Source: Candidatus Dojkabacteria bacterium (GTDB taxonomy: Bacteria; Patescibacteriota; Dojkabacteria; J137). Taken from it: DNA of 64,000 nucleotides. The notes under the pieces were generated by a model. The model worked only from the letters and a program-made list of their open reading frames with translations, did not search any database and had not been told where the DNA came from. The stretch covers positions 23,778-87,777 of the forward strand of contig JAUQWV010000001.1 in assembly GCA_030834985.1 (NCBI GenBank). The letters run 5' to 3'. Shown in pieces: positions 1,775 to 56,676 of the stretch; the stretch's first letter is position 1; the number at the start of each line of letters is the position of its first letter. Position numbers and translations under genes: made by a program.

Positions 1775-2971
1775 TTATAGCTGAAGGCTTCCTTCATCCC
1801 CAAGCCGCCAGTAAGCTATTCCTTTTATACCGTAATCTGCCGCGAGTTGTTTTCTTAGTTGTATAGATTCATTATTAGGCCATACAACAACTCGCGTTAC
1901 ACCACCATAATCATATTCGCCCATCATTTCACCCCAATTCTCAATAAATTTAGTAGTTACTTCATAATTATCAAAAAGCTTATCTATTCCGTTATGATAG
2001 TATGCTACCCCATTTTCAGATTCAGAAGGAGTAAAACTTAATCCGCTTTCTGAATAATAGGTTAGATCATATTCTATGGCTCTTTCGGGCCAATCGATTG
2101 CGTATGTATGAATTCCTAGAATTAATTTCTCCCTTGGGATTCCGCTTTTTATTGCATATCTAATTACGTCTTCCAGCCAATCGATTGGCCCAATAGCACC
2201 AATATGATCGCTTGAATGAATTGTGTATGAATAGCCTTGGATTATGAATTGATCAACGATCTCTCCCATCTTTTTATAATCAAGTGTTGCTTTAGATTGA
2301 CTGTAGGATATGTGATCACCCCATTTAGCCAGTGCACTGAACTGCAAGATTTTTTCATGTTCTGCTAATCTACTTTTTAAAGTCCGAAGCATTTCTAAAA
2401 ATAACTTTTGATCATTAATATAAAAGAGTTCAAAGTCCAGATCTATACCTGCATATCCATATGTAACTACATAGTCAATTGTTTCTTCAATGAACCGATC
2501 TATATTTTCTTGAGAATTTAATACACTAGATAGTTTGTCTTTATCAAAAGAAGTAATTGTAGGAATTAGATTAATATTATTATCTTGAGTATAGTAAATT
2601 AAATCGTCCCAGTTTGTATAAAGATTAGTTTTTAGTGTTCCATCTTCATTTAAATCAAACCAAAAAGGACTGACATTTTTAATAAATGTATTATTCTGCA
2701 GTGTTTCAAATCCGCTTACCATATCCCAATCTGGAATCCATCCGTAATATTCAAGTTGATCAATATTTTTAGGCTGTTTAGAAATAGACCTGATCTGCTC
2801 TACCTCTATATTTAATTCACTTTGATTTGAGGTGAAGATCTTAATTTCATTTACTTTTGTGACATCAATAGTGTCGGGATTTAAGTATTTTATGTAAGCA
2901 AAATACCCTGCTACAGCAATTACTACACTAAAGAATAAAAATAAGATGATCCGCATAATAGGTTTATTCAC
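1775..2971 (-). CDS. Glycoside hydrolase family 18-like (chitinase/YaaH-like) membrane-anchored protein
   Basis: 398 aa ORF with an N-terminal TM helix. GIDLDFE resembles the GH18 DxDxE catalytic motif. Confidence 0.55.
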   Translation of the reverse strand: MNKPIMRIILFLFFSVVIAVAGYFAYIKYLNPDTIDVTKVNEIKIFTSNQSELNIEVEQIRSISKQPKNIDQLEYYGWIPDWDMVSGFETLQNNTFIKNVSPFWFDLNEDGTLKTNLYTNWDDLIYYTQDNNINLIPTITSFDKDKLSSVLNSQENIDRFIEETIDYVVTYGYAGIDLDFELFYINDQKLFLEMLRTLKSRLAEHEKILQFSALAKWGDHISYSQSKATLDYKKMGEIVDQFIIQGYSYTIHSSDHIGAIGPIDWLEDVIRYAIKSGIPREKLILGIHTYAIDWPERAIEYDLTYYSESGLSFTPSESENGVAYYHNGIDKLFDNYEVTTKFIENWGEMMGEYDYGGVTRVVVWPNNESIQLRKQLAADYGIKGIAYWRLGDEGSLQL

Positions 2972-4079
2972 CTAATGTTAAAGGTTTGTCGACTTCTTCT
3001 GCTGTAATGGCAATGTTCTCACCTGTGATTTTAAATACATCTTTATCTAGTGATTTTAAGTTTTTGAAGGCAGAGTTATACGTACCAACTGCAGTACCCA
3101 TTTGTTTACCCAATTTAGAGAAGTTTTCTTCAAAAGTGTTAATATCCTTACCTAATTTCTCAACATTTTTTTGAATTTCCTGCGCCTGCTTTTCAATTTT
3201 TAACGCATTCAAACCTTGCAATACAGTTTGTAAATATGCCAAGAATGATGTTGGCGATACAATAATAACTTTCTTTTGTTTGAATGCATATTCTATTAAA
3301 TCATGAGTATTAGTTTTTATAACTCCAATCTTATTAACCAGTAAATCATAGTAGATACCTTCAGAAGGAATAAACATAAAAGCAAAGTCCATTGTATTTT
3401 CTGTTGGTCTAATATATTTAGAAGTTTCGTCAATTCTATTTTTTAAATCTTGTTTAAATATTTTTTGTAGTGCTTCTTTTTCTATTTCATCCTGGCATTC
3501 AACTATCTTATTGTAGTTTTCTAATGAAAATTTAGAATCAACAGGAATTATTTTATCTTTAACAAAAATTGCAGCGTCAACTAAATCTCCATCTTCAAAT
3601 TTATACTGCATTTCAAAAGTTCCAGGTGGCAGAACATTTTCTAAGACTGTTTCTAAAAAATACTCACCTAATATACCTCTCTGTTTAGGATTTTTTAAAA
3701 TATTCTCAAGACTTTGTAATTGTCCTGCAAAGTTTTGAATCTGTTTGTTTGTTTCTCCAACTTTTGTAAGTTCTTGAGTAATATTTTTAATATTTTGTGA
3801 ATATTCCTGAAAGTTCTTTTGTGAAATAGCAAACTGCTGAAGAATACTTTTGTTAGAAGTTCCTAGTTGTTCATTAAGTGCTCTATTCTGTTCAGAAAGT
3901 CTGTCGCTTAATTCTTTTTTTGTTTCATTCTGCAGCTGTAGTAAGTTATTAATCTGAGTTTGAAGTAATACGGCAGTTTTATCTTCATCTTTTGGCTTAT
4001 TTATTTTTACAATTAAAACAGCAACAGCTCCAATTAAGATAATTAGCAATACGATGGTTATAAGGCTTACAGGCTCCAT
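2964..4079 (-). CDS. rmuC: DNA recombination protein RmuC
   Basis: N-terminal TM, long coiled-coil (Q/N/E/K-rich), C-terminal RmuC-type region (FAFMFIPSEGIYYDLL). Confidence 0.75.
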   Translation of the reverse strand: MEPVSLITIVLLIILIGAVAVLIVKINKPKDEDKTAVLLQTQINNLLQLQNETKKELSDRLSEQNRALNEQLGTSNKSILQQFAISQKNFQEYSQNIKNITQELTKVGETNKQIQNFAGQLQSLENILKNPKQRGILGEYFLETVLENVLPPGTFEMQYKFEDGDLVDAAIFVKDKIIPVDSKFSLENYNKIVECQDEIEKEALQKIFKQDLKNRIDETSKYIRPTENTMDFAFMFIPSEGIYYDLLVNKIGVIKTNTHDLIEYAFKQKKVIIVSPTSFLAYLQTVLQGLNALKIEKQAQEIQKNVEKLGKDINTFEENFSKLGKQMGTAVGTYNSAFKNLKSLDKDVFKITGENIAITAEEVDKPLTLGE

Positions 4080-4184
4080 AAAGATTAGGTTAAGAATAAC
4101 TGTAGTTATTCTATCATAAGTGTACCAGGGAATTTAGTGATTGGAGGGCGGAATCCCGCTCCTCCAGATCGGAAATAAAGGATT

Positions 4185-4421
4185 TTATGCGTAAGTTGGC
4201 AGAGGGTTTTTTCGTTTATACTCCTCCAGCCTTCTTAATGCATCTTGTGGCGCGCTCGCTAAAGCGGTATTGAGCGCTTGCTCCGCGTCAAATCGCCGAT
4301 AGCCAGCAGCCTCGACTTCAAAACTTGAGCCGTGCCTGCTTTTTTCTACGGTTGTTTTGACAGCTGAATAGTACTCCTTATACGCCTCAATTAACGCTTC
4401 TGCGAGTTGGTCATTAGACAT
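4185..4421 (-). CDS. Hypothetical small protein (78 aa), GC-rich orphan gene
   Basis: ORF with SD (aaggaga) 8 nt upstream of the ATG on the minus strand. Local GC is much higher than its neighbours. Confidence 0.4.
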   Translation of the reverse strand: MSNDQLAEALIEAYKEYYSAVKTTVEKSRHGSSFEVEAAGYRRFDAEQALNTALASAPQDALRRLEEYKRKNPLPTYA

Positions 4422-4564
4422 GCTATTCTCCTTTTTTACCGAGCTTAAAATTTTATCATGTGTTACTCAAACCTGGCAACTAAAAGAGCTGTTGGTGATT
4501 GTAGAATTTAAACTTAGTATGAGCTGTGCTAAACTTTTCTTAATTTAACTTACTTACAAGATTT

Positions 4565-5572
4565 ATGGAACAACTCACACTTATTGCAGGGTTAGTTTTA
4601 TTAGCTATGGCTGTAACTTTCGCCTATGCGCCGTTTTTAATTAAACTTTTATATAAATTTCAAATTGTTGTTCGGCATCAGCTTATGGACAATAAAATGA
4701 ATGAAGAGTTTGTAAAAATCCAGGGACATAAAACAGGAACTCCAACACTTGGAGGTTTGATGATTGCTGTTTCAGTGTTTTTTCTAGTTATGTTTTGGGT
4801 TCCTGCATCTGACTTAAAGAATGTTTTTTTAATTTTCTGGACACTCTTTACATTGTATGGATTAATTGAAGGTTTAATTGTTTATGCAAGAAAGTTAAGT
4901 GATAAATTTAGAGCATTGGAATCTAGTTTTGAGTGGCGTTTGGGAAAACTTGCAATTTTGTATCTTCTAGGACTTTGGGCAGTCTATTCTATTGTTACTA
5001 TGCTAGCTATAAGTGAGATCACGCTTTTTGGCTTAACAATTTTAATTAATCCTTTAACAATAATTATTGGCTCATTCTTTTTTATTCTTGCGATGTATGC
5101 AATGGAAATCACTGATGGGGCAGATGGATTAGTCACAGGGCAATTTTTAATTGCATTCATATCTTATACCGTAATTAGTTTAGTTTCTGGCAACTTGAAT
5201 TTATTGCCATACCTGGCGTTTATGATAGGATCTTCTCTTGTGTATCTATATTTTAATATTAATCCTGCAAGAGTTTTTATGGGAGGAACGGGCACTTTCC
5301 CAATCGCATTTGCAATTTTATTCTTTTCTATTCTCACAAATACCGTAGATATATTATTAATAATGGGATTAATATTTTGGACAGAACTTGCAACTAGCGC
5401 TTTACAAATTTTATGGATTAAATTCCTTAAAAAGAGATTATTTAAAATTGCACCTTTTCATCATTATTTTGAGTCAATCGGCTGGCCGGAAACAAAGATG
5501 GTTCAAAGGTTTTGGTTATTTTCAGCAATTTTTGCAATACTCTCTTTATTTATATTTGGATTAACCAGATAG
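4565..5572 (+). CDS. mraY: MraY-family (phospho-MurNAc-pentapeptide transferase-like) polytopic membrane protein; canonical catalytic Asp residues not found
   Basis: Clear MraY blocks: KTGTPTLGG, EITDGADGL, ARVFMGG.G, KIAPFHHYFESIGWPE..RFW. No DD dipeptide anywhere in the protein. The GDVGS position reads GGTGT and HHH reads HHY. Confidence 0.8.
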   Translation: MEQLTLIAGLVLLAMAVTFAYAPFLIKLLYKFQIVVRHQLMDNKMNEEFVKIQGHKTGTPTLGGLMIAVSVFFLVMFWVPASDLKNVFLIFWTLFTLYGLIEGLIVYARKLSDKFRALESSFEWRLGKLAILYLLGLWAVYSIVTMLAISEITLFGLTILINPLTIIIGSFFFILAMYAMEITDGADGLVTGQFLIAFISYTVISLVSGNLNLLPYLAFMIGSSLVYLYFNINPARVFMGGTGTFPIAFAILFFSILTNTVDILLIMGLIFWTELATSALQILWIKFLKKRLFKIAPFHHYFESIGWPETKMVQRFWLFSAIFAILSLFIFGLTR

Positions 5573-5574
5573 AA

Positions 5575-6062
5575 ATGCGAAGAGGGCAGCTGCAATATGC
5601 GAGCTGCCCTCTGAAACCGGGATTCTCCATTCCCGGATTGAACCTGGGGGAAGACTCCCCACAGGCGGGCCAAATATTTGACCATCGCCAGATTTGCTCG
5701 TCCCGCAGCCGGGGCGCGACCGATGCTGTTCACTCTGAGAGTGTCCAGCGCAGTGTTGTCGCGCCAATCAGGGACGCTGCGCAAATCTTACAGCCGTTGC
5801 CGGCTGTGGCTTAGGTCTCCCCGCTTACGCTCCCTGGTGGGAGCCTGGGCGGGGCTATCTTTCTTCAGAAAACCCATCCTTTTTTCCTTTCGCGAAGGTT
5901 CGCCAATAAAGGTGACCGCTGGTAGTGCCCATCGTTCTACCCTTGAGACGAGATCTCAAGCGGCTGATTACGCCACCCACCTCGGCGGTTTGGCTCGGGC
6001 TTTCCGCAGAGCCGCCTGAAAGAGCTTGAAGTTTTTATTAGAAACTCACTCAGGCGGCTCTG
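5575..6062 (-). ncRNA. rnpB: GC-rich structured non-coding RNA, most consistent with RNase P RNA (rnpB); tmRNA not excluded
   Basis: ~60% GC block in a ~33% GC genome. Only Arg-rich overlapping ORFs on both strands, none with an SD. On the minus strand, in order: hairpin cagagccgcctga..tcaggcggctctg, directly followed by GGAAAGCCCGAGCC (cf. CR-I GGAAAGUCCGGGCUCC), then GCCAAACCGCCGAGGTGG, AAGGGTAGAACGATGG (cf. CR-II AGGGUGAAANGGUG), then GCTCCCACCAGGGAGCGTAAG (cf. ACUCCACCCGGAGCAAGG). A CR-V/P4 3' strand was not found by eye. Confidence 0.45.
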
Positions 6063-6208
6063 TTAGTTGTTTATTTATTAAAAAGCTATATTCATTATAT
6101 ACTTTTATGCCCGGATAAGTCAATACTTTTTGGCAACAAAACAATAAGCCGCTCTCCCCTCAAATCCTTTTACCTGATATAATTAGTGCGTTTTGTTAAT
6201 CGACGAAA

Positions 6209-8146
6209 ATGTCTACTAATCAGTTTATTCGAAATTTTTGCATAATTGCTCATATAGACCACGGCAAGTCTACCCTAGCTGACCGCCTTATTGAGACTAC
6301 GGGTGCGGTAGCAAGTCGTGAAATGAAAGATAGAATGCTTGATACTTTAGAATTAGAGCAAGAGCGTGGAATCACAATTAAACTCCAGACTGCTCGCTTA
6401 AAATATAATTATAAAGGCGACAAAGCAGAAAAAGGTGAATATACTCTTAATCTTATAGATACTCCAGGTCATGTTGATTTTAGTTATGAAGTTTCAAGAT
6501 CTGTTGCTGCTAGTGAAGGGTGCTTATTGTTAGTTGATGCAACGCAAGGCATTCAGGCGCAAACTTTAACAACTGTGTATAAAGCAATGGAATACGATCT
6601 AAAAATTATTCCAGTGATAAATAAAATTGATATGGATATTGCTGAAGTCGAACGAACAAAGCAAGAGATGATAGAAACTTTTGGCTTCAGTGAAGATGAA
6701 ATTATTTTGGCTTCAGGAAAATCTGGTATAGGTGTGAAAGAAATTTTAGATGCAGTTGTTGAAAGAATTCCTGCATATAAAAAAGAAGATACAAAAATTC
6801 TGTCAGACGAAGATGAGTTAGCTGTAATAGAAGGCAAGGAAATATCAAATACAAAAGCTGTAGTTTTTGATGCTTTTTTTCATGAATATAAAGGAGTAAC
6901 TGCCTTAATTAAAGTTATAAGCGGTGAAATAAAAAAAGGCGATAAAGTTTATTTTATAAGTACTCAAACAGATGTGTCACCAGTAGAAATTGGGTATCTA
7001 ATGCCTAAAATGACAGAAACTTCAGCTATTAAAGAAGGTGAAGTTGGATATATTGCTACGGGCTTAAAGGATATTCATAAAGTTCATTCGGGCGATACAA
7101 TTACTTTATTTAAACAAAACAATTCCCATACAAAAATTCAACCTTTAAAAGGTTACAGACAGCCAAAGCCAATGGTTTATGCTAGTTTGTATCCTGTTGA
7201 AGCTAGTGATTATGAATCTTTTAAAGAGGCATTAGAAAAATTATCATTAAACGATGCTGCTCTAACTTATCAAAAAGAATATTCTCAGGCACTTGGAACT
7301 GGATTTGTTTGCGGTTTTTTAGGCTTGCTACATCTTGAAATCACTCAAGATAGATTAGAACGTGAATATAATATAGATCTTATAAGCACAACTCCAACTG
7401 TAGAATTTAGAGTTTTATTATCAACTAAAGATTATTCCAAGGTTCCGAATATTAATGTTTCAAATATAGATCCCGAAACAAATATTGCAACAATTAGAAC
7501 TGCTGCCGAATTTCCTGAAGGAAGTCACTTAGAAGAAGTTTACGAGCCGTGGGTAAAGTTAGACATTATTACTCCCGAAGAATATATTGGATCAATAATG
7601 GAACTTTGCCAAAATCGAAGAGGCGTTTATAGGCACATGAACTTTTTGAATAAATCAGGAAGTAAAAATCATGCAATCATTGAATACGAAATACCAACAG
7701 TAGAAATTATTGTTAACTTTTTTGATAAATTAAAGTCACTAAGCCACGGTTATGCATCAATGGATTATTCTTTTTTAGAATATCGAAAGGGAGATATTGT
7801 AAAGGTTTCATTATTAGTAAATGGTGAGCCAGCAGAATCATTAAGCTTTTTAACTCATAGATCAAATTCTCAAAGGCGCGGGAGAGAGATGGTTGAAAAA
7901 TTGAAGGAGCTCATCCCGCGCCAGCAATTCAAAGTTCCAATTCAAGCTGCCATTGGTAGCCAGGTGATTGCCCGAGAAACGATTGATGCTTATAAAAAAG
8001 ATGTGCTTGCTAAGCTATATGGTGGTGATGTAACTAGAAAATTAAAATTGTTAGAAAAGCAGAAAAAAGGTAAAAAGAAAATGAAAGCTATTGGCAGTGT
8101 CGAGATTCCTAAAGAAGCTTTTTTAGCTGCGCTAAAAATTGACTAA
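6209..8146 (+). CDS. lepA: Elongation factor 4 (LepA) GTPase
   Basis: G-domain motifs (AHIDHGKST, DTPGH, NKID) and a LepA-specific C-terminal domain. Confidence 0.9.
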   Translation: MSTNQFIRNFCIIAHIDHGKSTLADRLIETTGAVASREMKDRMLDTLELEQERGITIKLQTARLKYNYKGDKAEKGEYTLNLIDTPGHVDFSYEVSRSVAASEGCLLLVDATQGIQAQTLTTVYKAMEYDLKIIPVINKIDMDIAEVERTKQEMIETFGFSEDEIILASGKSGIGVKEILDAVVERIPAYKKEDTKILSDEDELAVIEGKEISNTKAVVFDAFFHEYKGVTALIKVISGEIKKGDKVYFISTQTDVSPVEIGYLMPKMTETSAIKEGEVGYIATGLKDIHKVHSGDTITLFKQNNSHTKIQPLKGYRQPKPMVYASLYPVEASDYESFKEALEKLSLNDAALTYQKEYSQALGTGFVCGFLGLLHLEITQDRLEREYNIDLISTTPTVEFRVLLSTKDYSKVPNINVSNIDPETNIATIRTAAEFPEGSHLEEVYEPWVKLDIITPEEYIGSIMELCQNRRGVYRHMNFLNKSGSKNHAIIEYEIPTVEIIVNFFDKLKSLSHGYASMDYSFLEYRKGDIVKVSLLVNGEPAESLSFLTHRSNSQRRGREMVEKLKELIPRQQFKVPIQAAIGSQVIARETIDAYKKDVLAKLYGGDVTRKLKLLEKQKKGKKKMKAIGSVEIPKEAFLAALKID

Positions 8147-49630: not shown

Positions 49631-49707
49631 AGGCCCCATCGTCTAGCGGTCTAGGACATTGCCTTTTCAAGGCAGTAACCGGGGTTCGAGTCCCCGTGGG
49701 GTCACCA
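49631..49707 (+). tRNA. tRNA-Glu (anticodon UUC), CCA encoded
   Basis: Hand-folded. Acceptor GGCCCCA/TGGGGTC. D-arm TCGTCTAGCGGTCTAGGAC (Glu-type). Anticodon loop TTTTCAA. T-arm GGGG TTCGAGT CCCC. ACCA 3' end. Confidence 0.85.
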
Positions 49708-51166
49708 TTATAGAATTTTCACCACCTAATTCTTCATTAAGCAATGCAGGTAATGGTCTTGTATCAGTTGTAAATTCACCATCTTTAAATATTAAACCGC
49801 TAGGAAATAGCCATTTTTGCAACTTATTTTGTATCTCAACTTCTGTATTTTCCCATGCACCACTTAAATTTGTTAAGAAATTAATGCTGTAATCCATCAA
49901 TTCCTGCTCATCTGCTTCAGGTTGATTATATTTTAATAATTCCATTCTAATCCCTGCAATTTCGCTTTCTAATTGGCTTATTTTTGTTCTTGCAACCTCA
50001 TCACTGATTACTCCTTCAATATTTTTGTCAATAACTGAATTTTGTTTATGTTTCAATTCATTTAATTGGTTCTCTAAAATTAGCCTTTCCTTTTTTATTT
50101 CTGCTGTTTCCTGCTCCCAGTTTAATTTGATTGCTGTTTTAATCACATTTGCAATGTTCTCATCTAACCTAATAGTTTCAAGGTAATCTTTAAATCTGGA
50201 TTCAACATAGTCCTTTTTGATATTTACACCCTTACAGTTAGTGCATCTATAATGTCCATATTTCTTTTTAGCCCAATTGCCTGTCATGGTTTTTCTGCAA
50301 TTTCCACATTTCACAATACCTCTTAATGGAAAATCTGGATTCACTTTTTTATAAATCGGGAGCTTTTTAGATTTACCATTTAATACAAATTGTACTTGGT
50401 CAAATACTTCTGGTTCTACAATTGCTTCAAAATTGCCCTTTTGATAAATGCTCATTTTAGGAATGTTAATGTATCCTTTATAAATGGGATTCTTTAACAT
50501 CTTGTAAAAGTGGGATTTAGTTAATGCTTTCCCGTCATTTCTAACTACTCCGATTTGTTTAGCTTTTTGCCTTACTTCTTCTAAACTTCTGTGACCTTCT
50601 AGCACCAAGTTAAAAACTTCCTTTATTTTAGGTGCTAATAATTGATTTGGGACTATATTTGATGTTCCTCTTCCTCCAACCCTATCAAATCCATAAGGCT
50701 CTTTAAAAGTGTATCTACCGTCTTTTAAAGCTTCAATCATTCCATTTCTACTTCTTTCACCCCTTACCTCATTATCAAATTGAGCGATTCCAGCCAACAT
50801 TGTCTCAACAAGTCTGCCTACAGGATTATCTTCAATAGCTTCTGTTATAGATATTACTTTTACTCCACACTGATAAAAATAAGCTTTTAAAGTTGCATAA
50901 TCTACAGATGCTCTTGATAGCCTATCTATTTTATAAATTAGCAATGAATCAATCTCGCCTTGATGGTCTTTGCAGTATTTCATCATTTCCTGCAATTTTG
51001 TTCTACTTATTGTTTTTGCACTTTCTCCTTCTTCAATAAATACTTCTACAATCTCAAGTCCTTCTTTTTGTGCATAAAGCCTGCAAAGCCTCTCCTGTGT
51101 TTTTAAGCTATTACCATCATCAGCCTGTTCTTGTGTTGATACTCTACAATATATTATTCCTTTCAT
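49667..51166 (-). CDS. Large serine recombinase (phage-type serine integrase)
   Basis: N-terminal resolvase catalytic domain (YCRVSTQEQ, Ser nucleophile). Recombinase domain, zinc ribbon (CGNC...C.NC) and coiled-coil. Last 41 nt overlap tRNA-Glu. Confidence 0.85.
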   Translation of the reverse strand: MKGIIYCRVSTQEQADDGNSLKTQERLCRLYAQKEGLEIVEVFIEEGESAKTISRTKLQEMMKYCKDHQGEIDSLLIYKIDRLSRASVDYATLKAYFYQCGVKVISITEAIEDNPVGRLVETMLAGIAQFDNEVRGERSRNGMIEALKDGRYTFKEPYGFDRVGGRGTSNIVPNQLLAPKIKEVFNLVLEGHRSLEEVRQKAKQIGVVRNDGKALTKSHFYKMLKNPIYKGYINIPKMSIYQKGNFEAIVEPEVFDQVQFVLNGKSKKLPIYKKVNPDFPLRGIVKCGNCRKTMTGNWAKKKYGHYRCTNCKGVNIKKDYVESRFKDYLETIRLDENIANVIKTAIKLNWEQETAEIKKERLILENQLNELKHKQNSVIDKNIEGVISDEVARTKISQLESEIAGIRMELLKYNQPEADEQELMDYSINFLTNLSGAWENTEVEIQNKLQKWLFPSGLIFKDGEFTTDTRPLPALLNEELGGENSIMVTPRGLEPRLLP

Positions 51167-51318
51167 TTGTTTTTCTTGTATAACAAATAGGCTTCCATCA
51201 CTATTCTGGCAAACATATCTATTTCATCCACCAGCTTTTCAATTAGAAATTTATCTTCAATTCCTAACGCTCTTATCTCTTTTTCTAAGAGTTTTCTTTT
51301 TTTGTCTTCCTGACTCAT
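51163..51318 (-). CDS. Small ORF (51 aa) overlapping the integrase start (TGA/ATG overlap); possible directionality factor/regulator
   Basis: Found manually; it is below the ORF-track cutoff. MSQEDKKRKLLEKEIRALG.... Confidence 0.35.
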   Translation of the reverse strand: MSQEDKKRKLLEKEIRALGIEDKFLIEKLVDEIDMFARIVMEAYLLYKKNK

Positions 51319-51411
51319 AGCTAAAACAATAAATTGCTTTAGCCTGAGTGCCTCTCAGCGCATCTGCTTGTAATTAAATAATCTATATTCCTGCCGTTTC
51401 TAGCTCAGAAT

Positions 51412-52233
51412 TTAGATTTTATAAACATCTTCCAATTTATAACTAACAATTTTGCCGTCTCTCTTTGTTATTTTTATATTAGTAAAATCTTTCTCTTTCA
51501 TTGATTCTATTAGCTCAATTTCAGTCATACCTTCAGTATTCTTTTCAAGTTCTCCATAAACATTAAATGTATTTTTATCTTTCTTCTTTATTGTGACTAA
51601 TGAGTAATTCTTATTCCTTAAAATATCTAATATTTCATTTTCTTTGTCAGATACTTTAGAACTTTGGGAGAAGTTAGCCATCAGTTCTACTAGATTATTA
51701 TGGCTTGGGAATTTAGAGTCTTCACCTTTTGTGAGTTTCCACACTTTCCTTACTATTTCATTAAAATTTATTAATGTATAGGAATGGTAATTTGAATCAA
51801 CAACAGTTTGATAACCAGTATCAACAAACCAAGATCTACCATCTGCAGTGAGAATAAGGGAGATTTTCACAGTACCCAAAACTAGAAGTAAAACATGGTC
51901 AACATCAGAAAACTTGGCGGTTCCTTTATTATGTTTATAAAAATCATCCCTAAGTTCTTGAAGTAAATCATTTTCAATTCCGTATTTTCTAAATTCAAGA
52001 ATTGTATATAGATACACCAGGTCTTTAAAACTAAATTTACGCCAACCTCTTTCATTTTCTCTCTCATCTTGAAGCATCGCACTTGCTCCTAGCGAGTTTA
52101 TTTGTCTATAGCTTAATGTTGAGTCTTTGACAGTATACTTTTTCTCACTTAATTTCTTATTTAGTTGTAATTTCACATCATCATTGCTATTGATGTAATA
52201 CCCAACCATTAATGATTCCGATATTAAAATCAT
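51412..52233 (-). CDS. MerR-type HTH protein with ~170-aa C-terminal domain of unknown function
   Basis: N-terminal YTVKDSTLSYRQINSLG...ENERGWRKFSFKDLVYLYTILEFRKYG matches the MerR HTH/wing pattern. Confidence 0.5.
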   Translation of the reverse strand: MILISESLMVGYYINSNDDVKLQLNKKLSEKKYTVKDSTLSYRQINSLGASAMLQDERENERGWRKFSFKDLVYLYTILEFRKYGIENDLLQELRDDFYKHNKGTAKFSDVDHVLLLVLGTVKISLILTADGRSWFVDTGYQTVVDSNYHSYTLINFNEIVRKVWKLTKGEDSKFPSHNNLVELMANFSQSSKVSDKENEILDILRNKNYSLVTIKKKDKNTFNVYGELEKNTEGMTEIELIESMKEKDFTNIKITKRDGKIVSYKLEDVYKI

Positions 52234-52304
52234 AAAACTATACTTACATGTATAATTTTATTTTATAAGGATTAAATTGAACTGTCAAGTATAATTTGAG
52301 GGAA

Positions 52305-53291
52305 TTAAAGTTTGCTTAAATCTTCTTTAATTTTTTTTGCAATATGTTTAGCAAATTCAACAGGTACAGCATTCCCGATCATCTTATATCCATCTGCAAT
52401 ATTGGTATATTTAAAGACAAAATCATCTGGAAATGTTTGGATTCTTGCGCATTCTCTAACTGAAAGTCTCCTATACAAGTCTTCTTTCCCAGGTACAAAA
52501 ATTCTTTTATTTTGCTCTACAAAAAGCATTTTAGGAGCTTGGGGATGTATTGGAGCATGTCTTCCACCAGCCTGGATAGTAAATGATGGTTCATCCCAAC
52601 TCCTAACCCTATTTCTTGACATGTACATTGTTGAGAATCCACCTGTCATGTATTCATGATTTGTAATACTTAATTCTTCTCCATTTGTCTTGTTGAAACT
52701 CAATGCAGGTTTGGGAGCTGGCAAGTCGCCAATTGCATCTTTTAAATTAAGTTTTTTATCCAATGGTTTTGGAAATTCAAATTTAAATCCGACTTTCTTC
52801 TTATGGAATCCTACAATAATTACTCTTTGTCTATCTTCAGGGACTCCATAATCATTAGCATTTAAAAGATCAAAACTAATATGATAGCCAGCATCTTCAA
52901 ACTCTTTAATTATTGCTGTAAAGGCTTCTTTATGCCTAATTGATAATATTCCAGATACATTTTCTGCAAGAAAGAATAGAGGTTGTTTATCTTTTAAAAC
53001 TCTGATGTATTCATAAAATAATTGACCTCTTTTATCATTTATTCCTCTTCCTGCACCTGCTTCACTCCAGCTTTGACAAGGTGGTCCTCCTACAATTCCT
53101 TCTGCTTCAGGAATATCTTCATTTGGTACATCAACAATGCTTCTCTTATCTAATTTTGTTTCTGGAAAATTTGCTTCAAATGTACTCCAGATAGTTTTAT
53201 CATATTCATTTGCCCATACAATATTAAATCCTGCTTTTTTAAAACCAAGATCAAGACCACCAGCACCTGTAAAAAGTGATACAACTTTCAT
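52305..53291 (-). CDS. DNA (cytosine-5)-methyltransferase
   Basis: Motif I FTGAGG, motif IV PPCQ, motif VI ENV. Confidence 0.9.
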   Translation of the reverse strand: MKVVSLFTGAGGLDLGFKKAGFNIVWANEYDKTIWSTFEANFPETKLDKRSIVDVPNEDIPEAEGIVGGPPCQSWSEAGAGRGINDKRGQLFYEYIRVLKDKQPLFFLAENVSGILSIRHKEAFTAIIKEFEDAGYHISFDLLNANDYGVPEDRQRVIIVGFHKKKVGFKFEFPKPLDKKLNLKDAIGDLPAPKPALSFNKTNGEELSITNHEYMTGGFSTMYMSRNRVRSWDEPSFTIQAGGRHAPIHPQAPKMLFVEQNKRIFVPGKEDLYRRLSVRECARIQTFPDDFVFKYTNIADGYKMIGNAVPVEFAKHIAKKIKEDLSKL

Positions 53292-53292
53292 G

Positions 53293-54135
53293 TTAGATTC
53301 TAAAACTTAAAACTTTTGCATCAAGAAGATTAGCGGGATTATTTGGAGATTTAATTTTTACATCTTTGATCTCCAATTTATTCTCAATATTCTTTCTATC
53401 ACTTTCTGGGAATGATTCATATTTTGTCTTAAGCATTATTGCATTAACAACTAAATCATTATCTACTTGAGAAGGAATTACATAGTTAAATACTCGGTGC
53501 GGATTTTCAATTCCCCACATTCCTCTAACTCTTAAGTAAGTTATACCCAACGGGTCAACTCTGTTGACTCTTGCTAATTCATTAGTTTCTCCAAATTCTA
53601 CATCTTTTAATTCATTTAATCCTTGAGAAATTTTATTGCTAATTCGCTCATAGACTTCTTTATTTGCAGCATAACAATCTCCATAAACAAACCAAAGTTT
53701 TTTCAACTTTGAATCTTTAATCACTCCAACAACATACAATAAATCTTTTTCGGTCCAGTTTTCAGCAGTTCTGCACGCATTTGTTATCATTGGGCTGTCT
53801 GCATACAATTTATCTTTAGGATATGAGCTGTTCAATGCTATACCAGAGTTTACCCCTTCAATTTTTTTAACTTCAATTGCATCTCCACCTCTTATCATTA
53901 CATCTGGTGGATTATTTTGATTGCCAATGTATGAAAAATATTGACTGTGGGTTAATATTTTGTTTTCAATATTTGAATCAGATTCTCCAACAGTATTGCA
54001 AAATAAATCTCTAACATAATATTCTAAAGCCTCACCAACATTATTAATTCTATTGCTTGAATTGTAAGTTGCAAGTATATCTGTGATAGGATTTTGAACT
54101 AAGTTTGATAAAGCAACTAAAAGGTTGGTTTCCAT
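53293..54135 (-). CDS. Putative Type II restriction endonuclease (PD-(D/E)XK) cognate to the adjacent MTase
   Basis: PDVMI...GDAIEVKK matches PD-x(n)-(D/E)-x-K. 1-nt spacing to the MTase gene on the same strand. Confidence 0.55.
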   Translation of the reverse strand: METNLLVALSNLVQNPITDILATYNSSNRINNVGEALEYYVRDLFCNTVGESDSNIENKILTHSQYFSYIGNQNNPPDVMIRGGDAIEVKKIEGVNSGIALNSSYPKDKLYADSPMITNACRTAENWTEKDLLYVVGVIKDSKLKKLWFVYGDCYAANKEVYERISNKISQGLNELKDVEFGETNELARVNRVDPLGITYLRVRGMWGIENPHRVFNYVIPSQVDNDLVVNAIMLKTKYESFPESDRKNIENKLEIKDVKIKSPNNPANLLDAKVLSFRI

Positions 54136-54195
54136 ATATTTATATATTAAATGGGTTAAATCTCTAAATAATATACTACGGGTATGCCACTTTTC

Positions 54196-54606
54196 TCAAA
54201 CCTTATTTTCACTTAAGGCTCTAAACTCTTCCTGGCTATATTTTGGTTCAACAATTTCTATAATGTATTTTGATATAGGTTCTTTTTGATTCTCATCTTC
54301 CTTGTTGAACTGTGCCTTACTCACATGTCTGTCAACCCAATCTAATAGGAATTTATCACTTTTTAAACCTTTTGAAACATACTTAATTGCCATAACATCT
54401 CTGATTGTATATTTAGCTTTTGATTTTTCTGCCTCTTTTTCTATTCTCTCAAATTCTTCTAATGATAATTCTTGATATTCCATTACTTTATCCATAAACG
54501 CCTGTGCAGATTTTTTTCTTTTCCACCCTTCCGACTTAGCCTCACCACTTGGTTGGTTATTAGAATTAAATTGTGTATTTTCCCCGTTTTTAACGCCGTT
54601 TTTCAT
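54196..54606 (-). CDS. Hypothetical protein (136 aa), downstream partner of a coupled gene pair
   Basis: ATGA start/stop overlap with the upstream gene. Basic N-terminus (GWKRKKSAQA). No recognisable family. Confidence 0.45.
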   Translation of the reverse strand: MKNGVKNGENTQFNSNNQPSGEAKSEGWKRKKSAQAFMDKVMEYQELSLEEFERIEKEAEKSKAKYTIRDVMAIKYVSKGLKSDKFLLDWVDRHVSKAQFNKEDENQKEPISKYIIEIVEPKYSQEEFRALSENKV

Positions 54607-55238
54607 TTACTTTTAATAAATTTAATTGCTTCTTTTATTTTTTCATCAGTGTACTCATTATTTTCTAAATCTGTGATAATCTGTTTTCTAATTTCCATTG
54701 TCCAATACCAAAGTACATCACAATTCACCCATAAAACATCTTTACTATCAAAACTAAAAGGGTTTTGCTTTTCTGTTATTATTTTATTCTGTAATTCAAT
54801 ATAAGTGCTTGCCTCATCTGGAACTATCTTGGCTTTAGGAAATGCTACATGAATCAATCTATGTCTTATTCTCTTCCAAAATTCTAAAATTTGTTTATCG
54901 CTATAATTCCAATTATTCACTTTAGCTCTTAAAAGTTTTTGTATTGCATCAGTTTCATTTATGTCACCCTGACTATTCATGCACACTTTATCTGCGAGTA
55001 TCACATAAGTCTTAGCAATTAAACCTAAAACAGTTACAGATATTAGTGCGATTGCAAGATTACCACCACCTAAACTATTCTCCTCCATAAATTTTTTACC
55101 ATCGGTTCTTAAAAACTGAAAAGTTCTTACATCTCCTGTATAAATTGTAAACTCATCTTTTAAAGGTTTTTCACCTTTCATTATTTCTATTAAAATTTCT
55201 CTATCTGACATATTTGAAAAAAACTTAATTATTATCAA
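54603..55238 (-). CDS. Hypothetical protein (211 aa) with a possible HEPN-like R-x4-6-H motif (RIRHRLIH)
   Basis: ORF with one hydrophobic segment. R-x4-6-H motif noted. First gene of the coupled pair. Confidence 0.45.
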   Translation of the reverse strand: MIIIKFFSNMSDREILIEIMKGEKPLKDEFTIYTGDVRTFQFLRTDGKKFMEENSLGGGNLAIALISVTVLGLIAKTYVILADKVCMNSQGDINETDAIQKLLRAKVNNWNYSDKQILEFWKRIRHRLIHVAFPKAKIVPDEASTYIELQNKIITEKQNPFSFDSKDVLWVNCDVLWYWTMEIRKQIITDLENNEYTDEKIKEAIKFIKSK

Positions 55239-55433
55239 TTATAATACTTGTGTACCTCTTTAGTTGTATTACTAGTAGGTATTAAGATTGATAAATGTAG
55301 ATTGAAGATTAAAAGCTTTTATTAAAGAACCTAATTCTGTTAAGCTTTCAATGGCTGAGTTGTAAAATGGTTTCTTTAGGGTCAAATTTTTCCTCTAATT
55401 TACATAACGATATTCAAGTGCTACTATTAAGTT

Positions 55434-55784
55434 ATGGATATCACTCTTAAGCGCGCATACGAAGCTACAGCGCTCACTGATGGTTATCGGGTATTGGTTG
55501 ATCGTTTATGGCCACGAGGTATTTCTAAAAAGGATATTAATATCGATGAGTGGTGTAAAGATGTTGCACCAAGTATGAAGCTTCGTAAATGGTTTGCTCA
55601 TGATCCTGCTAAATTTGCAGAATTCACTAAGCGCTATCTTACGGAATTAAAATCTTCAGATGCTGCACAGCAATTAATAAAACGTGCTAAAGCTAAAGAT
55701 AAGCATTTAACGCTTGTTTTTGCAGCAAGAGATCCGAATGTAAACCATGTAGTTGTGCTTAAGCAATATTTAGAATCTCTCTAA
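55434..55784 (+). CDS. DUF488 (YeaO-like) family protein
   Basis: Near-identical block to E. coli YeaO (DGYRVLVDRLWPRGI.K.D...EW.K...PS..LRKWF). Confidence 0.75.
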   Translation: MDITLKRAYEATALTDGYRVLVDRLWPRGISKKDINIDEWCKDVAPSMKLRKWFAHDPAKFAEFTKRYLTELKSSDAAQQLIKRAKAKDKHLTLVFAARDPNVNHVVVLKQYLESL

Positions 55785-55815
55785 TCTTCACTGATTCTAG
55801 GTTTATAATACGTGT

Positions 55816-56676
55816 GTGAATGAAATCGAACTACACAACTATAATTTAGAAAAAACTCTTTTAGGCGGTCAAAGCTTCAATTGGGATTTAATTGATGGAA
55901 CGTTTTACGGCTTTTTTGTAGATAAAGTTGTAAAACTCAAGCAAGAAGAAAACAAACTATACTGGCAGACTTATCCTGAAAAAGATAATTTTGACTTTAT
56001 AAAGCAATATCTAAGACTTGGCGTTGATTACAACAAGATACTTACTCAAATCAACAAGGATGAATGGGTAGATGCTTCTATAAAAAAATATCCAAACTTA
56101 AGAATTCTAAAACAAGATTTTGATCAGACTTTAATTTCGTATATTATATCGGCCAACAATAATATCAATTCAATAAGAAGGATTGTGCGGAATCTTTCAC
56201 GAAGTTTAGGTAAGCAAGTTACTGTTGATAATCTCACTTTTAATTTATTCCCAAGTGTTGAAAGTATTGCACAAGCTCCACTAGAAACCTTGTTGGAAAC
56301 AAAAGCTGGTTACAGAGCAAGATATCTTAAAGATTCCGCACAAAAGTTATTTGTAGAAGGTCAAAAACTATCAAATAATGAAGATGAGATTATTAAATGG
56401 TTATTAGAATTTCCAGGTATTGGTGAAAAAGTTGCAGATGCAATTCTTCAATATTCGTTAGGATTTGATAATGTAACACCTTTAGATGTTTGGGTACAAA
56501 GGATACTGATAGATTTATATTTAGTAGATTCAAAAGCTAACTACAAAAAGATGAGAGCATGGCTTCAAAGTTATTTTAATGGCTATGCTGGCTGGGCTGG
56601 TCAGTTTTTGTACGAATACTATAGAAATGAGTATAAGTTTATTAAATCGAAATCACTTGTTGGCAGTGATAATTAA
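55816..56676 (+). CDS. ogg: 8-oxoguanine DNA glycosylase (OGG-type, HhH-GPD)
   Basis: N-terminal GQSFNW. HhH motif EFPGIGEKVADAIL, followed by the catalytic Asp region PLDVW. Confidence 0.7.
   Translation: MNEIELHNYNLEKTLLGGQSFNWDLIDGTFYGFFVDKVVKLKQEENKLYWQTYPEKDNFDFIKQYLRLGVDYNKILTQINKDEWVDASIKKYPNLRILKQDFDQTLISYIISANNNINSIRRIVRNLSRSLGKQVTVDNLTFNLFPSVESIAQAPLETLLETKAGYRARYLKDSAQKLFVEGQKLSNNEDEIIKWLLEFPGIGEKVADAILQYSLGFDNVTPLDVWVQRILIDLYLVDSKANYKKMRAWLQSYFNGYAGWAGQFLYEYYRNEYKFIKSKSLVGSDN

Follow-up and report, generated by a model that had tools for sequence, protein, structure and literature searches.

Two overlapping genes on the minus strand of a Candidatus Dojkabacteria contig (JAUQWV010000001.1, assembly GCA_030834985.1) were analysed together with their surroundings, a stretch of 64,000 nucleotides that is referred to here as the window and whose numbering is used throughout. 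The two genes appear to be co-transcribed neighbours with different roles inside an integrative element of about 5.68 kb. The downstream gene encodes a homologue of the phage small terminase (TerS), 136 aa in length, and belongs to the backbone of a satellite-like element, and the upstream gene, coding for 202 aa, is cargo of that element and may specify a HEPN-like RNase. The probability that this reading holds as a whole is put at about 0.6. Loci used for comparison are given L numbers and proteins P numbers.

The 136-aa gene occupies positions 54196..54606 (minus strand, ATG start) and the 202-aa gene positions 54603..55211 (minus strand). They share a four-nucleotide ATGA overlap, AAATGAAAA, which contains the stop of the 202-aa gene and the start of the 136-aa gene, as had been described in an earlier, sequence-only reading of this DNA. 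That reading had given the larger protein 211 aa, following the open reading frame (ORF) back to a TTG at 55238 (54603..55238). The ATG at 55211 is most likely the true start, since an identical database protein (P0001, 'hypothetical protein DOJK_01097 [Patescibacteria group bacterium]') has 202 aa and the N-termini of the homologues align at that methionine. Both ORFs are genuine genes under purifying selection rather than chance ORFs, given that homologues exist and that the ratios of non-synonymous to synonymous substitution rates (dN/dS) against orthologues are low (202-aa gene, 0.12-0.14; 136-aa gene, 0.08-0.23). The ATGA overlap points to operon compaction and is not evidence for a dedicated pair, because a second ATGA overlap occurs within the operon, at the junction of a 51-aa ORF and the integrase gene, and because in other elements, too, the gene preceding the 136-aa gene lies close against it, the gap being 2-15 nt in three of them and 47 nt in L008.

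Homologues of the 136-aa protein formed seven clusters in the first search, all of them unannotated, and 31 after a profile search. In all four of the phage contexts found, the homologue is encoded directly upstream of the large terminase (TerL), usually with an overlap, and a portal gene follows. These contexts (L018, L020, L021/L022 and L023-L025) are independent of each other and comprise three TerL/portal combinations. L018 is a contig from IMG/VR with genes for RecT, YqaJ, RusA and a DnaC-like protein as well, and its homologue shares 41% identity with the 136-aa protein over 108 aa (BLASTP, E 5e-29). The gene of this homologue runs into the start of the next one, which matches Terminase_3 (1.7e-18) and Terminase_3C (1.2e-13), and a gene for an SPP1-type portal (1.7e-13) follows. 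In L020 the homologue P0074 precedes Terminase_3, an SPP1 portal, Mu_F and head/tail genes; P0089 precedes Terminase_6N/6C in L021/L022; and P0078 precedes Terminase_6C and then a portal in L023-L025. On the strength of this homology and of the conserved synteny, with the gene in the canonical small-terminase position upstream of TerL, the 136-aa protein is assigned as a TerS homologue.

The basic segment (GWKRKK) towards the N-terminus of the 136-aa protein and its acidic C-terminal tail, both remarked on in the sequence-only reading, are indeed present. That reading had compared the small protein with an antitoxin as well as with a phage small terminase; the latter resemblance was upheld by the homologues upstream of TerL and the former was not. 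It had also named homology to phage packaging proteins as the kind of result that would speak against a defence module, and for the 136-aa protein such homology was found on four phage contigs.

The named database entries for homologues of the two proteins read only 'hypothetical protein', except for P0081, which carries the Joint Genome Institute (JGI) label 'Spy/CpxP family protein refolding chaperone', and neither the 136-aa nor the 202-aa family was named in any of the libraries searched, among them Pfam, PADLOC, PHROGs and NCBIfam. A tblastn search against GenBank phages returned nothing meaningful for the 136-aa protein, the 202-aa protein or the phage TerS P0074. Two other identities were considered for the 136-aa protein. 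A resemblance of its N-terminus to DUF5681 or terminase motifs had no Pfam support and the one BFVD match to a DUF5681 protein was insignificant (E 5.9); the idea was dropped in favour of the synteny. A role as the controller (C) protein of a restriction-modification (R-M) system was considered since the gene always precedes R-M cargo, but this was ruled out, given that the R-M types differ, that the order of the M and R genes varies and that the phage homologues precede TerL.

The element is taken to span positions 49705..55384, since the homology breakpoints coincide with the hexamer GGGTCA at both ends. On the proximal side GGGTCA (49699..49704, plus strand) closes the acceptor stem of a tRNA-Glu(TTC) gene (49632..49707, plus strand; ARAGORN), which is the proposed integration target. 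On the distal side the homology among the window, L006, L007 and L001 starts at TGACCC, the same hexamer standing on the plus strand at 55379..55384, and the flanks outside consist of unrelated host genes. GGGTCA is proposed as the crossover core at both boundaries. A conserved end of about 122 bp (55261..55384, minus strand) lies upstream of the first cargo slot and, by DNA comparison, is 94-95% identical in L006 and L007 and about 84% identical in L001 despite the different cargo that follows it. A long direct repeat of attachment (att) sites was searched for at the island and none was found. The G+C content of the element (49708-55384) is 31.1% against 35.0% for the rest of the window, with 35.1% and 35.2% in the phage contigs L018 and L020. 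In the distal flank (55434-56676) a DUF488 protein (inactive N3 subclade, 5.7e-38) and an OGG/HhH-GPD DNA glycosylase are encoded, both of them host genes outside the element.

Read in the order of transcription, the element consists of the conserved end, cargo slot 1, the terS-like gene, cargo slot 2, the gene of a protein with a MerR-type helix-turn-helix (HTH), a small ORF, the serine integrase gene and the tRNA gene. This backbone, with variable cargo, is conserved in L001, L002, L004, L006, L007, L008 and L017, which are Patescibacteria and Saccharibacteria contigs. L006 and L007 share the tRNA-Glu target of the window; in L004 and L017 the target is tRNA-His. The terS-like gene is kept in all of the related elements, as befits a member of the backbone, and is the only gene common to the element and the phage contigs. 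No homologue of a large terminase, portal or capsid protein was found in the 64-kb window, and the element itself contains no large terminase, portal, capsid, tail or lysis gene; a capsid-morphogenesis gene was likewise not found in it.

Slot 1 holds the 202-aa gene in the window, L001 and L002, with a 204-aa protein inserted upstream of the homologue in L002. Elsewhere the same slot is filled by a 354-aa protein, a DUF4325 protein and a 197-aa protein (L004, 8035-9998), by an SDH-type protease with proteins of 98 and 176 aa (L006, 8176-9986), by a single 540-aa protein (L007, 8373-9995) or by an AAA ATPase and an S8 peptidase (L017, 6607-9955). Across the elements the 136-aa gene thus follows at least five unrelated upstream genes, and the 202-aa gene is exchangeable cargo. 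None of the scanned slot-1 genes of L002, L004, L006 and L007 was recognised by PADLOC, the L017 pair lying outside the scan, and the slot-1 gene sets of the sister elements are candidates for new defence systems.

A more distant view of the 202-aa family shows its upstream neighbours changing as well. P0011, which is 42% identical to the 202-aa protein, follows a 343-aa protein and is located between aspS and uvrB. P0013 follows an MmeI-like R-M enzyme with an ATGA overlap and, in L012, is then followed by a serine integrase and tRNA-His; L012 is a contig of 3.7 kb with this 203-aa relative and the serine-integrase/tRNA-His end, in which there is no 136-aa gene. P0014 follows a kinase-like protein and a 226-aa protein, and hydrophobic N-terminal segments are predicted for the upstream partners of L002 and L009. 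Judged by these neighbourhoods, the family seems to represent a terminal gene, effector-like in character, whose upstream partners change and which is frequently located on mobile DNA and frequently close to R-M genes. The cargo of an L008 element, an MmeI-like enzyme together with a protein matching Pfam HEPN_LA2681, shows that HEPN plus R-M is a recurrent load of this type of element.

A word-indexed search recovered only three close homologues of the 202-aa protein. An exhaustive HMMER search with an alignment of the close homologues (E <= 1e-3) extended the family to 56 clusters, mostly of 185-290 aa, from which an alignment of 52 sequences with a mean column identity of 23% was obtained. 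Residues M1, D27, G48, G50, R116 and H121 are invariant in all 52 sequences, and G49 (51/52), N51 (50/52), W112 and L119 (51/52) are nearly so. The G48-G49-G50-N51 residues form a GGGN motif (55059..55070, minus strand) that precedes a hydrophobic helix. R116 to H121 (R116-H117-R118-L119-I120-H121; 54849..54866, minus strand) constitute an R-[N/H/D]-x-L-x-H motif, within the full family signature W-x3-R-[N/H/D]-x-L-x-H, and this motif is a candidate HEPN RNase active site.

The metal-independent RNase site of HEPN proteins is described as Rx4-6H, with the residue after the arginine mostly N, D or H (Anantharaman et al., PMC3710099). R116-x4-H121 agrees with this spacing in 52 of the 52 members, and a polar residue of the expected kind follows the arginine in 51 of them, position 117 being N in 31, H in 16, D in four and G in one. 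The sequence-only reading had singled out the segment RIRHRLIH (residues 114-121; 54849..54872, minus strand) as a possible HEPN motif. The invariance of R116 and H121 lends that guess support at the level of the motif; the arginine concerned is R116 and not R114. Of the acidic residues upstream, D27 is found in every sequence and E86 in 42 of the 52, neither of them in the Ex3[KR] context typical of HEPN. As a whole, these findings suggest that the 202-aa protein represents an unannotated family with an HEPN-type RNase motif, supported at the level of the motif, and a stand-alone HEPN-like defence cargo beside an R-M system is plausible.

Library searches with the 202-aa protein and its family gave nothing consistent in Pfam, PADLOC, PHROG or NCBIfam. 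In Pfam searches over the 52 members, single weak matches to HEPN_LA2681 (0.014) and HEPN_RiboL-PSP (0.024) were obtained, so that two of the approximately 11 noise-level matches (E <= 0.03) were to HEPN families. Two out of about 11 exceeds expectation if HEPN models are taken to make up a small fraction of Pfam. PDB sequence and profile searches with the alignments A2 and A3 and the motif-region alignment A8 gave noise only, and a tblastn search with the 202-aa protein against PLSDB plasmids gave nothing meaningful. The structure model of the protein is all-helical but poor (pLDDT 53).

The single hydrophobic helix noted in the sequence-only reading is present at about residues 51-73, where the highest Kyte-Doolittle mean over 19 residues is 2.19. 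It contains a conserved K/Q and, in many members, also D, N or E. A firm transmembrane reading of this helix was considered and rejected, as only half of the members (26/52) exceed 1.6 in a 19-residue Kyte-Doolittle window and conserved polar residues lie inside it.

Slot 2 of the element in the window contains a Type II R-M system, made up of an NgoPII-family restriction endonuclease (53293..54135, minus strand; Pfam RE_NgoPII 4.4e-109, PADLOC REase_II 2e-113) and a C5 cytosine DNA methyltransferase (52305..53291, minus strand; Pfam DNA_methylase 1.9e-97). With the serine recombinase described below, these genes agree with the tRNA-Glu island beside a Type II R-M system that had been recognised from the sequence earlier. 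The backbone gene that follows (51412..52233, minus strand) codes for a 273-aa protein with an N-terminal MerR-type HTH and is a candidate regulator. MerR_1 matched three of the five members of this 273/281-aa family (best E 1.2e-4), and the copy in the window at 0.0033, below the gathering score. A gene for a 273/281/277-aa protein is conserved in L004, L006, L007 and L008, and a 212-aa protein is found instead in another lineage. The best sigma-70-like promoter match of the island (TTGACA-17-TAAAAT, 11/12; 52288-52260, minus strand) falls in the gap between the methyltransferase and 273-aa genes, inside a 38-nt imperfect tandem repeat (window 52221-52297). The regulator/integrase module may be a transcription unit separate from the 202-terS-R-M genes.

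The 51-aa ORF (51163..51318, minus strand), whose end overlaps the integrase start, is a candidate recombination directionality factor. An ORF of 57-63 aa is present at the same position in L004, L008 and L017, with no detectable similarity to the 51-aa ORF of the window. The integrase (49667..51166, minus strand) is a large serine recombinase, matching the Pfam models Resolvase (3.8e-34), Recombinase (3.4e-11) and Zn_ribbon_recom (7.8e-9). The last 41 nt of its ORF overlap the 3' part of tRNA-Glu and run past the proposed GGGTCA crossover, so that its last residues (…VTPRGLEPRLLP) are host-encoded in the integrated state; after excision the tail would instead be read from the conserved distal end. 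The integrase of L012 likewise ends inside tRNA-His.

Two further observations concern the sister loci. In L008 (250-20357) two elements apparently lie in tandem. The genes that close the first encode a 116-aa HTH protein, a 214-aa protein and a 590-aa serine recombinase. The second opens with the terS-like gene, continues with an HTH protein, a 247-aa protein, the MmeI-like enzyme, a 323-aa protein and the HEPN_LA2681 protein of 519 aa, and closes with the 277-aa backbone protein, a 57-aa ORF and the integrase. In L004 (Patescibacteria bacterium BroJett037) the region just outside the element (2018-7189) encodes a 1320-aa PA14/RHS-repeat protein, followed by Imm53, DUF4265 and small ORFs, and looks like a polymorphic-toxin locus with an array of immunity genes.

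Judged by its gene content, the element is most likely a phage satellite of the phage-inducible chromosomal island (PICI) type. When a helper phage related to the contigs L018/L020 infects, the element would excise by means of its serine integrase, possibly with the 51-aa ORF as directionality factor, and the empty site is predicted as ...GTCCCCGTGGGGTCAAATTTTTCC... in sequence. The TerS of the element would direct the large terminase of the helper to package element DNA, probably as concatemers given the size of 5.7 kb. The 202-aa protein would serve as an RNA-cleaving abortive-infection or defence effector beside the R-M cargo and could act as a second defence line; PrrC plays this part beside EcoprrI, and the logic of that pair is a precedent for an RNase effector next to R-M cargo. 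In its fullest form the proposal is that these elements are true and minimal satellites of Patescibacteria (candidate phyla radiation, CPR), which would hijack helpers of the L018/L020 type with no more than a serine integrase, a MerR-type regulator and a TerS, and which would have two defence-cargo slots that include a new HEPN-like RNase family backing up R-M. That full version is put forward tentatively, as it would more probably fail in some part than hold in all of them.

The contig with the closest phage TerS homologue, L020, also encodes (310-2239) a T4 Rnl1-type RNA ligase (PF09511) and a polynucleotide kinase-phosphatase (AAA_33 and HAD_PNKP). T4 counters the HEPN anticodon nuclease PrrC with this classic pair of tRNA-repair enzymes, Rnl1 and the kinase-phosphatase. 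Their presence hints that the phages of these hosts face RNA-cleaving defences.

Several results weigh against a satellite-like element with a TerS homologue and HEPN-like cargo. No terminase or TerS model in Pfam or PHROGs matched the 136-aa family, and fold searches with the model of this protein (pLDDT 67) led only to generic helical matches. A profile-level link of the 202-aa family to an established HEPN family was not found in Pfam, NCBIfam or PADLOC. With hhalign, comparison with a HEPN_LA2681 protein aligned the motif only, at a probability of 0.4%, and PDB profile searches of the family were empty. An antitoxin or sensor for a potentially toxic RNase is not evident in the element. No replication gene was recognised, as none of the element ORFs matches a primase or Rep family. 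Exact-match searches found neither the predicted attP junction (CTATAATGGTGACCCTAAAGAAACC) in assembled JGI metagenome and IMG/VR contigs nor the conserved distal end in JGI metagenome contigs.

The explanation advanced in the sequence-only reading was a two-gene toxin-antitoxin or abortive-infection module, with an HEPN toxin in the 202-aa protein and its antitoxin or partner in the 136-aa protein, the two being translationally coupled. The ATGA overlap and the HEPN-type motif are in keeping with such a module, as is the 136-aa-like gene found downstream of all three closest homologues of the 202-aa gene, but these three loci belong to one element family (84-88% DNA identity) and are not independent. 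Unrelated genes precede the 136-aa gene in L004, L006, L007, L008 and L017, its homologues precede TerL in phages, the 202-aa relatives at 29-42% identity (L009, L010-12 and L013-15) have no 136-aa neighbour, and PADLOC recognised neither protein. The gene contexts have largely refuted the module already, and it is considered highly improbable. A decayed prophage remnant, with the terS-like gene as a functionless leftover and the 202-aa gene as an unrelated hitch-hiker, would account for the sharing of a single gene with phages, for the lack of replication and structural genes and for the failure to find the excised form in contig searches. It is nonetheless improbable, as at least seven elements in different genomes and at two tRNA targets have the same compact backbone in the same order, four of them (window, L001, L006 and L007) also keeping the distal end of about 122 bp. 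The turnover of cargo between elements and the purifying selection on the terS-like gene argue in the same direction, and the same minimal set would not be expected repeatedly from random decay.

A credible though unlikely alternative is that the TerS-like protein has been repurposed, either as a DNA-binding regulator or directionality factor for the integrase, or as a decoy that poisons phage packaging motors without transfer of the element. The element has no recognisable partner TerL, the terS-like gene sits between two defence-type cargo slots, and interference with packaging by satellite-encoded factors has been documented for known satellites. On the other hand, the integrase and the conservation of the element ends speak for mobility, and a mobile element needs a route of transfer. 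The evidence does not tell a repurposed TerS and true packaging redirection apart. It is also possible, and deserves to be taken seriously as a minority view, that the 202-aa protein is not an RNase and that its R/H pair has some other role in a helical, possibly membrane-associated protein, acting as a sensor or scaffold with variable upstream partners. Such a role would be consistent with the profile and fold searches, which gave no HEPN link, with the hydrophobic helix after GGGN and its scores, with the hydrophobic segments of the upstream partners in L002 and L009, and with the extra invariant D27 and GGGN, which are not standard HEPN features. The motif nevertheless fits the HEPN consensus in its spacing, in the residue after the arginine and in its strict invariance, and the polar residues inside the hydrophobic helix argue against a membrane span. 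A TerS homologue in the backbone of a satellite-like element, with an HEPN-like RNase as cargo, is still the preferred reading.

If the elements are true phage satellites, they would be the first for Patescibacteria, and would shuttle defence cargo between tiny episymbiont genomes. Full-text literature searches returned no paper combining Patescibacteria with phage satellites or small terminase, and in a 2025 preprint the existence of satellites for viruses of CPR bacteria is stated to be unknown. What appears to be new here is a minimal integrative element that carries a TerS, in a phylum new for such elements, together with an HEPN-motif family, with functions proposed from genomic data. As the ends and the backbone of the element family are defined and candidate helper-phage contigs are at hand, the satellite question is testable on existing read sets. 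Its two cargo slots, with R-M systems and unrecognised gene sets, provide a list of candidate defence systems in a hard-to-culture phylum. The 202-aa family, with its textbook HEPN catalytic motif and repeated linkage to R-M genes and mobile elements, could join the catalogues of defence systems if its activity were confirmed.

Among known systems the element most resembles the PICIs, including those of the Staphylococcus aureus pathogenicity island (SaPI) type. The core set of the PICIs comprises an integrase, an alpA/merR/stl regulator, pri-rep, capsid morphogenesis and terS, and accessory genes lie close to the last of these (PMC10085698). Like these islands, the present element is integrated, and it has an integrase, a merR-type regulator, its own TerS, accessory or defence genes near terS, and no large terminase, structural or lysis genes. 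Three of the five PICI core functions were thus found together with the required absences; a primase-replicase module and a capsid-morphogenesis gene were not recognised. SaPI-type PICIs also have no capsid-morphogenesis gene, and SatelliteFinder accepts serine and tyrosine recombinases interchangeably (PMC10085698). The element differs from PICIs in its size, about 5.7 kb compared with a median of 9.5 kb, in the use of a large serine integrase into the 3' end of a tRNA gene, and in its Patescibacteria host.

A second likeness is to the PICMIs (phage-inducible chromosomal minimalist islands), small satellites of Vibrionaceae that carry R-M systems and new defence genes as cargo (PMC10803314). 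The two have in common a very small size, a reduced gene set, the lack of capsid-remodelling genes and a hotspot with R-M and novel defence genes, and the packaging of concatemers would be an obvious solution for a genome of 5.7 kb here as well (PMC10803314). PICMIs, however, integrate next to fis and rely on three core proteins for excision and replication (PMC10803314), and the word 'terminase' does not occur in the main text of that paper. The present element has instead a serine integrase, a tRNA target, a TerS homologue and no recognisable replication gene.

For the 202-aa family, the HEPN-MNT (HepT/MntA) type II/VII toxin-antitoxin systems offer a parallel in that they too have a small HEPN-motif protein, encoded in an overlapping arrangement of two genes. 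The neighbour here is a TerS homologue and not a nucleotidyltransferase antitoxin, and the pairing is not conserved across the family. A further comparison can be made with the R-M-linked HEPN proteins, of which at least 16 clades have been described, with PrrC/EcoprrI as the paradigm (PMC3710099). The 202-aa protein differs from these in having no ABC-ATPase or other regulatory domain, in the extra invariant D27 and GGGN motif of its family, and in the lack of a significant HEPN profile match. It resembles them in the invariant R-x4-H with N/H/D after the arginine, in a structure that the poor model predicts to be all-helical and in its position beside R-M genes on mobile DNA, and some of its relatives are translationally coupled to an MmeI-like enzyme.

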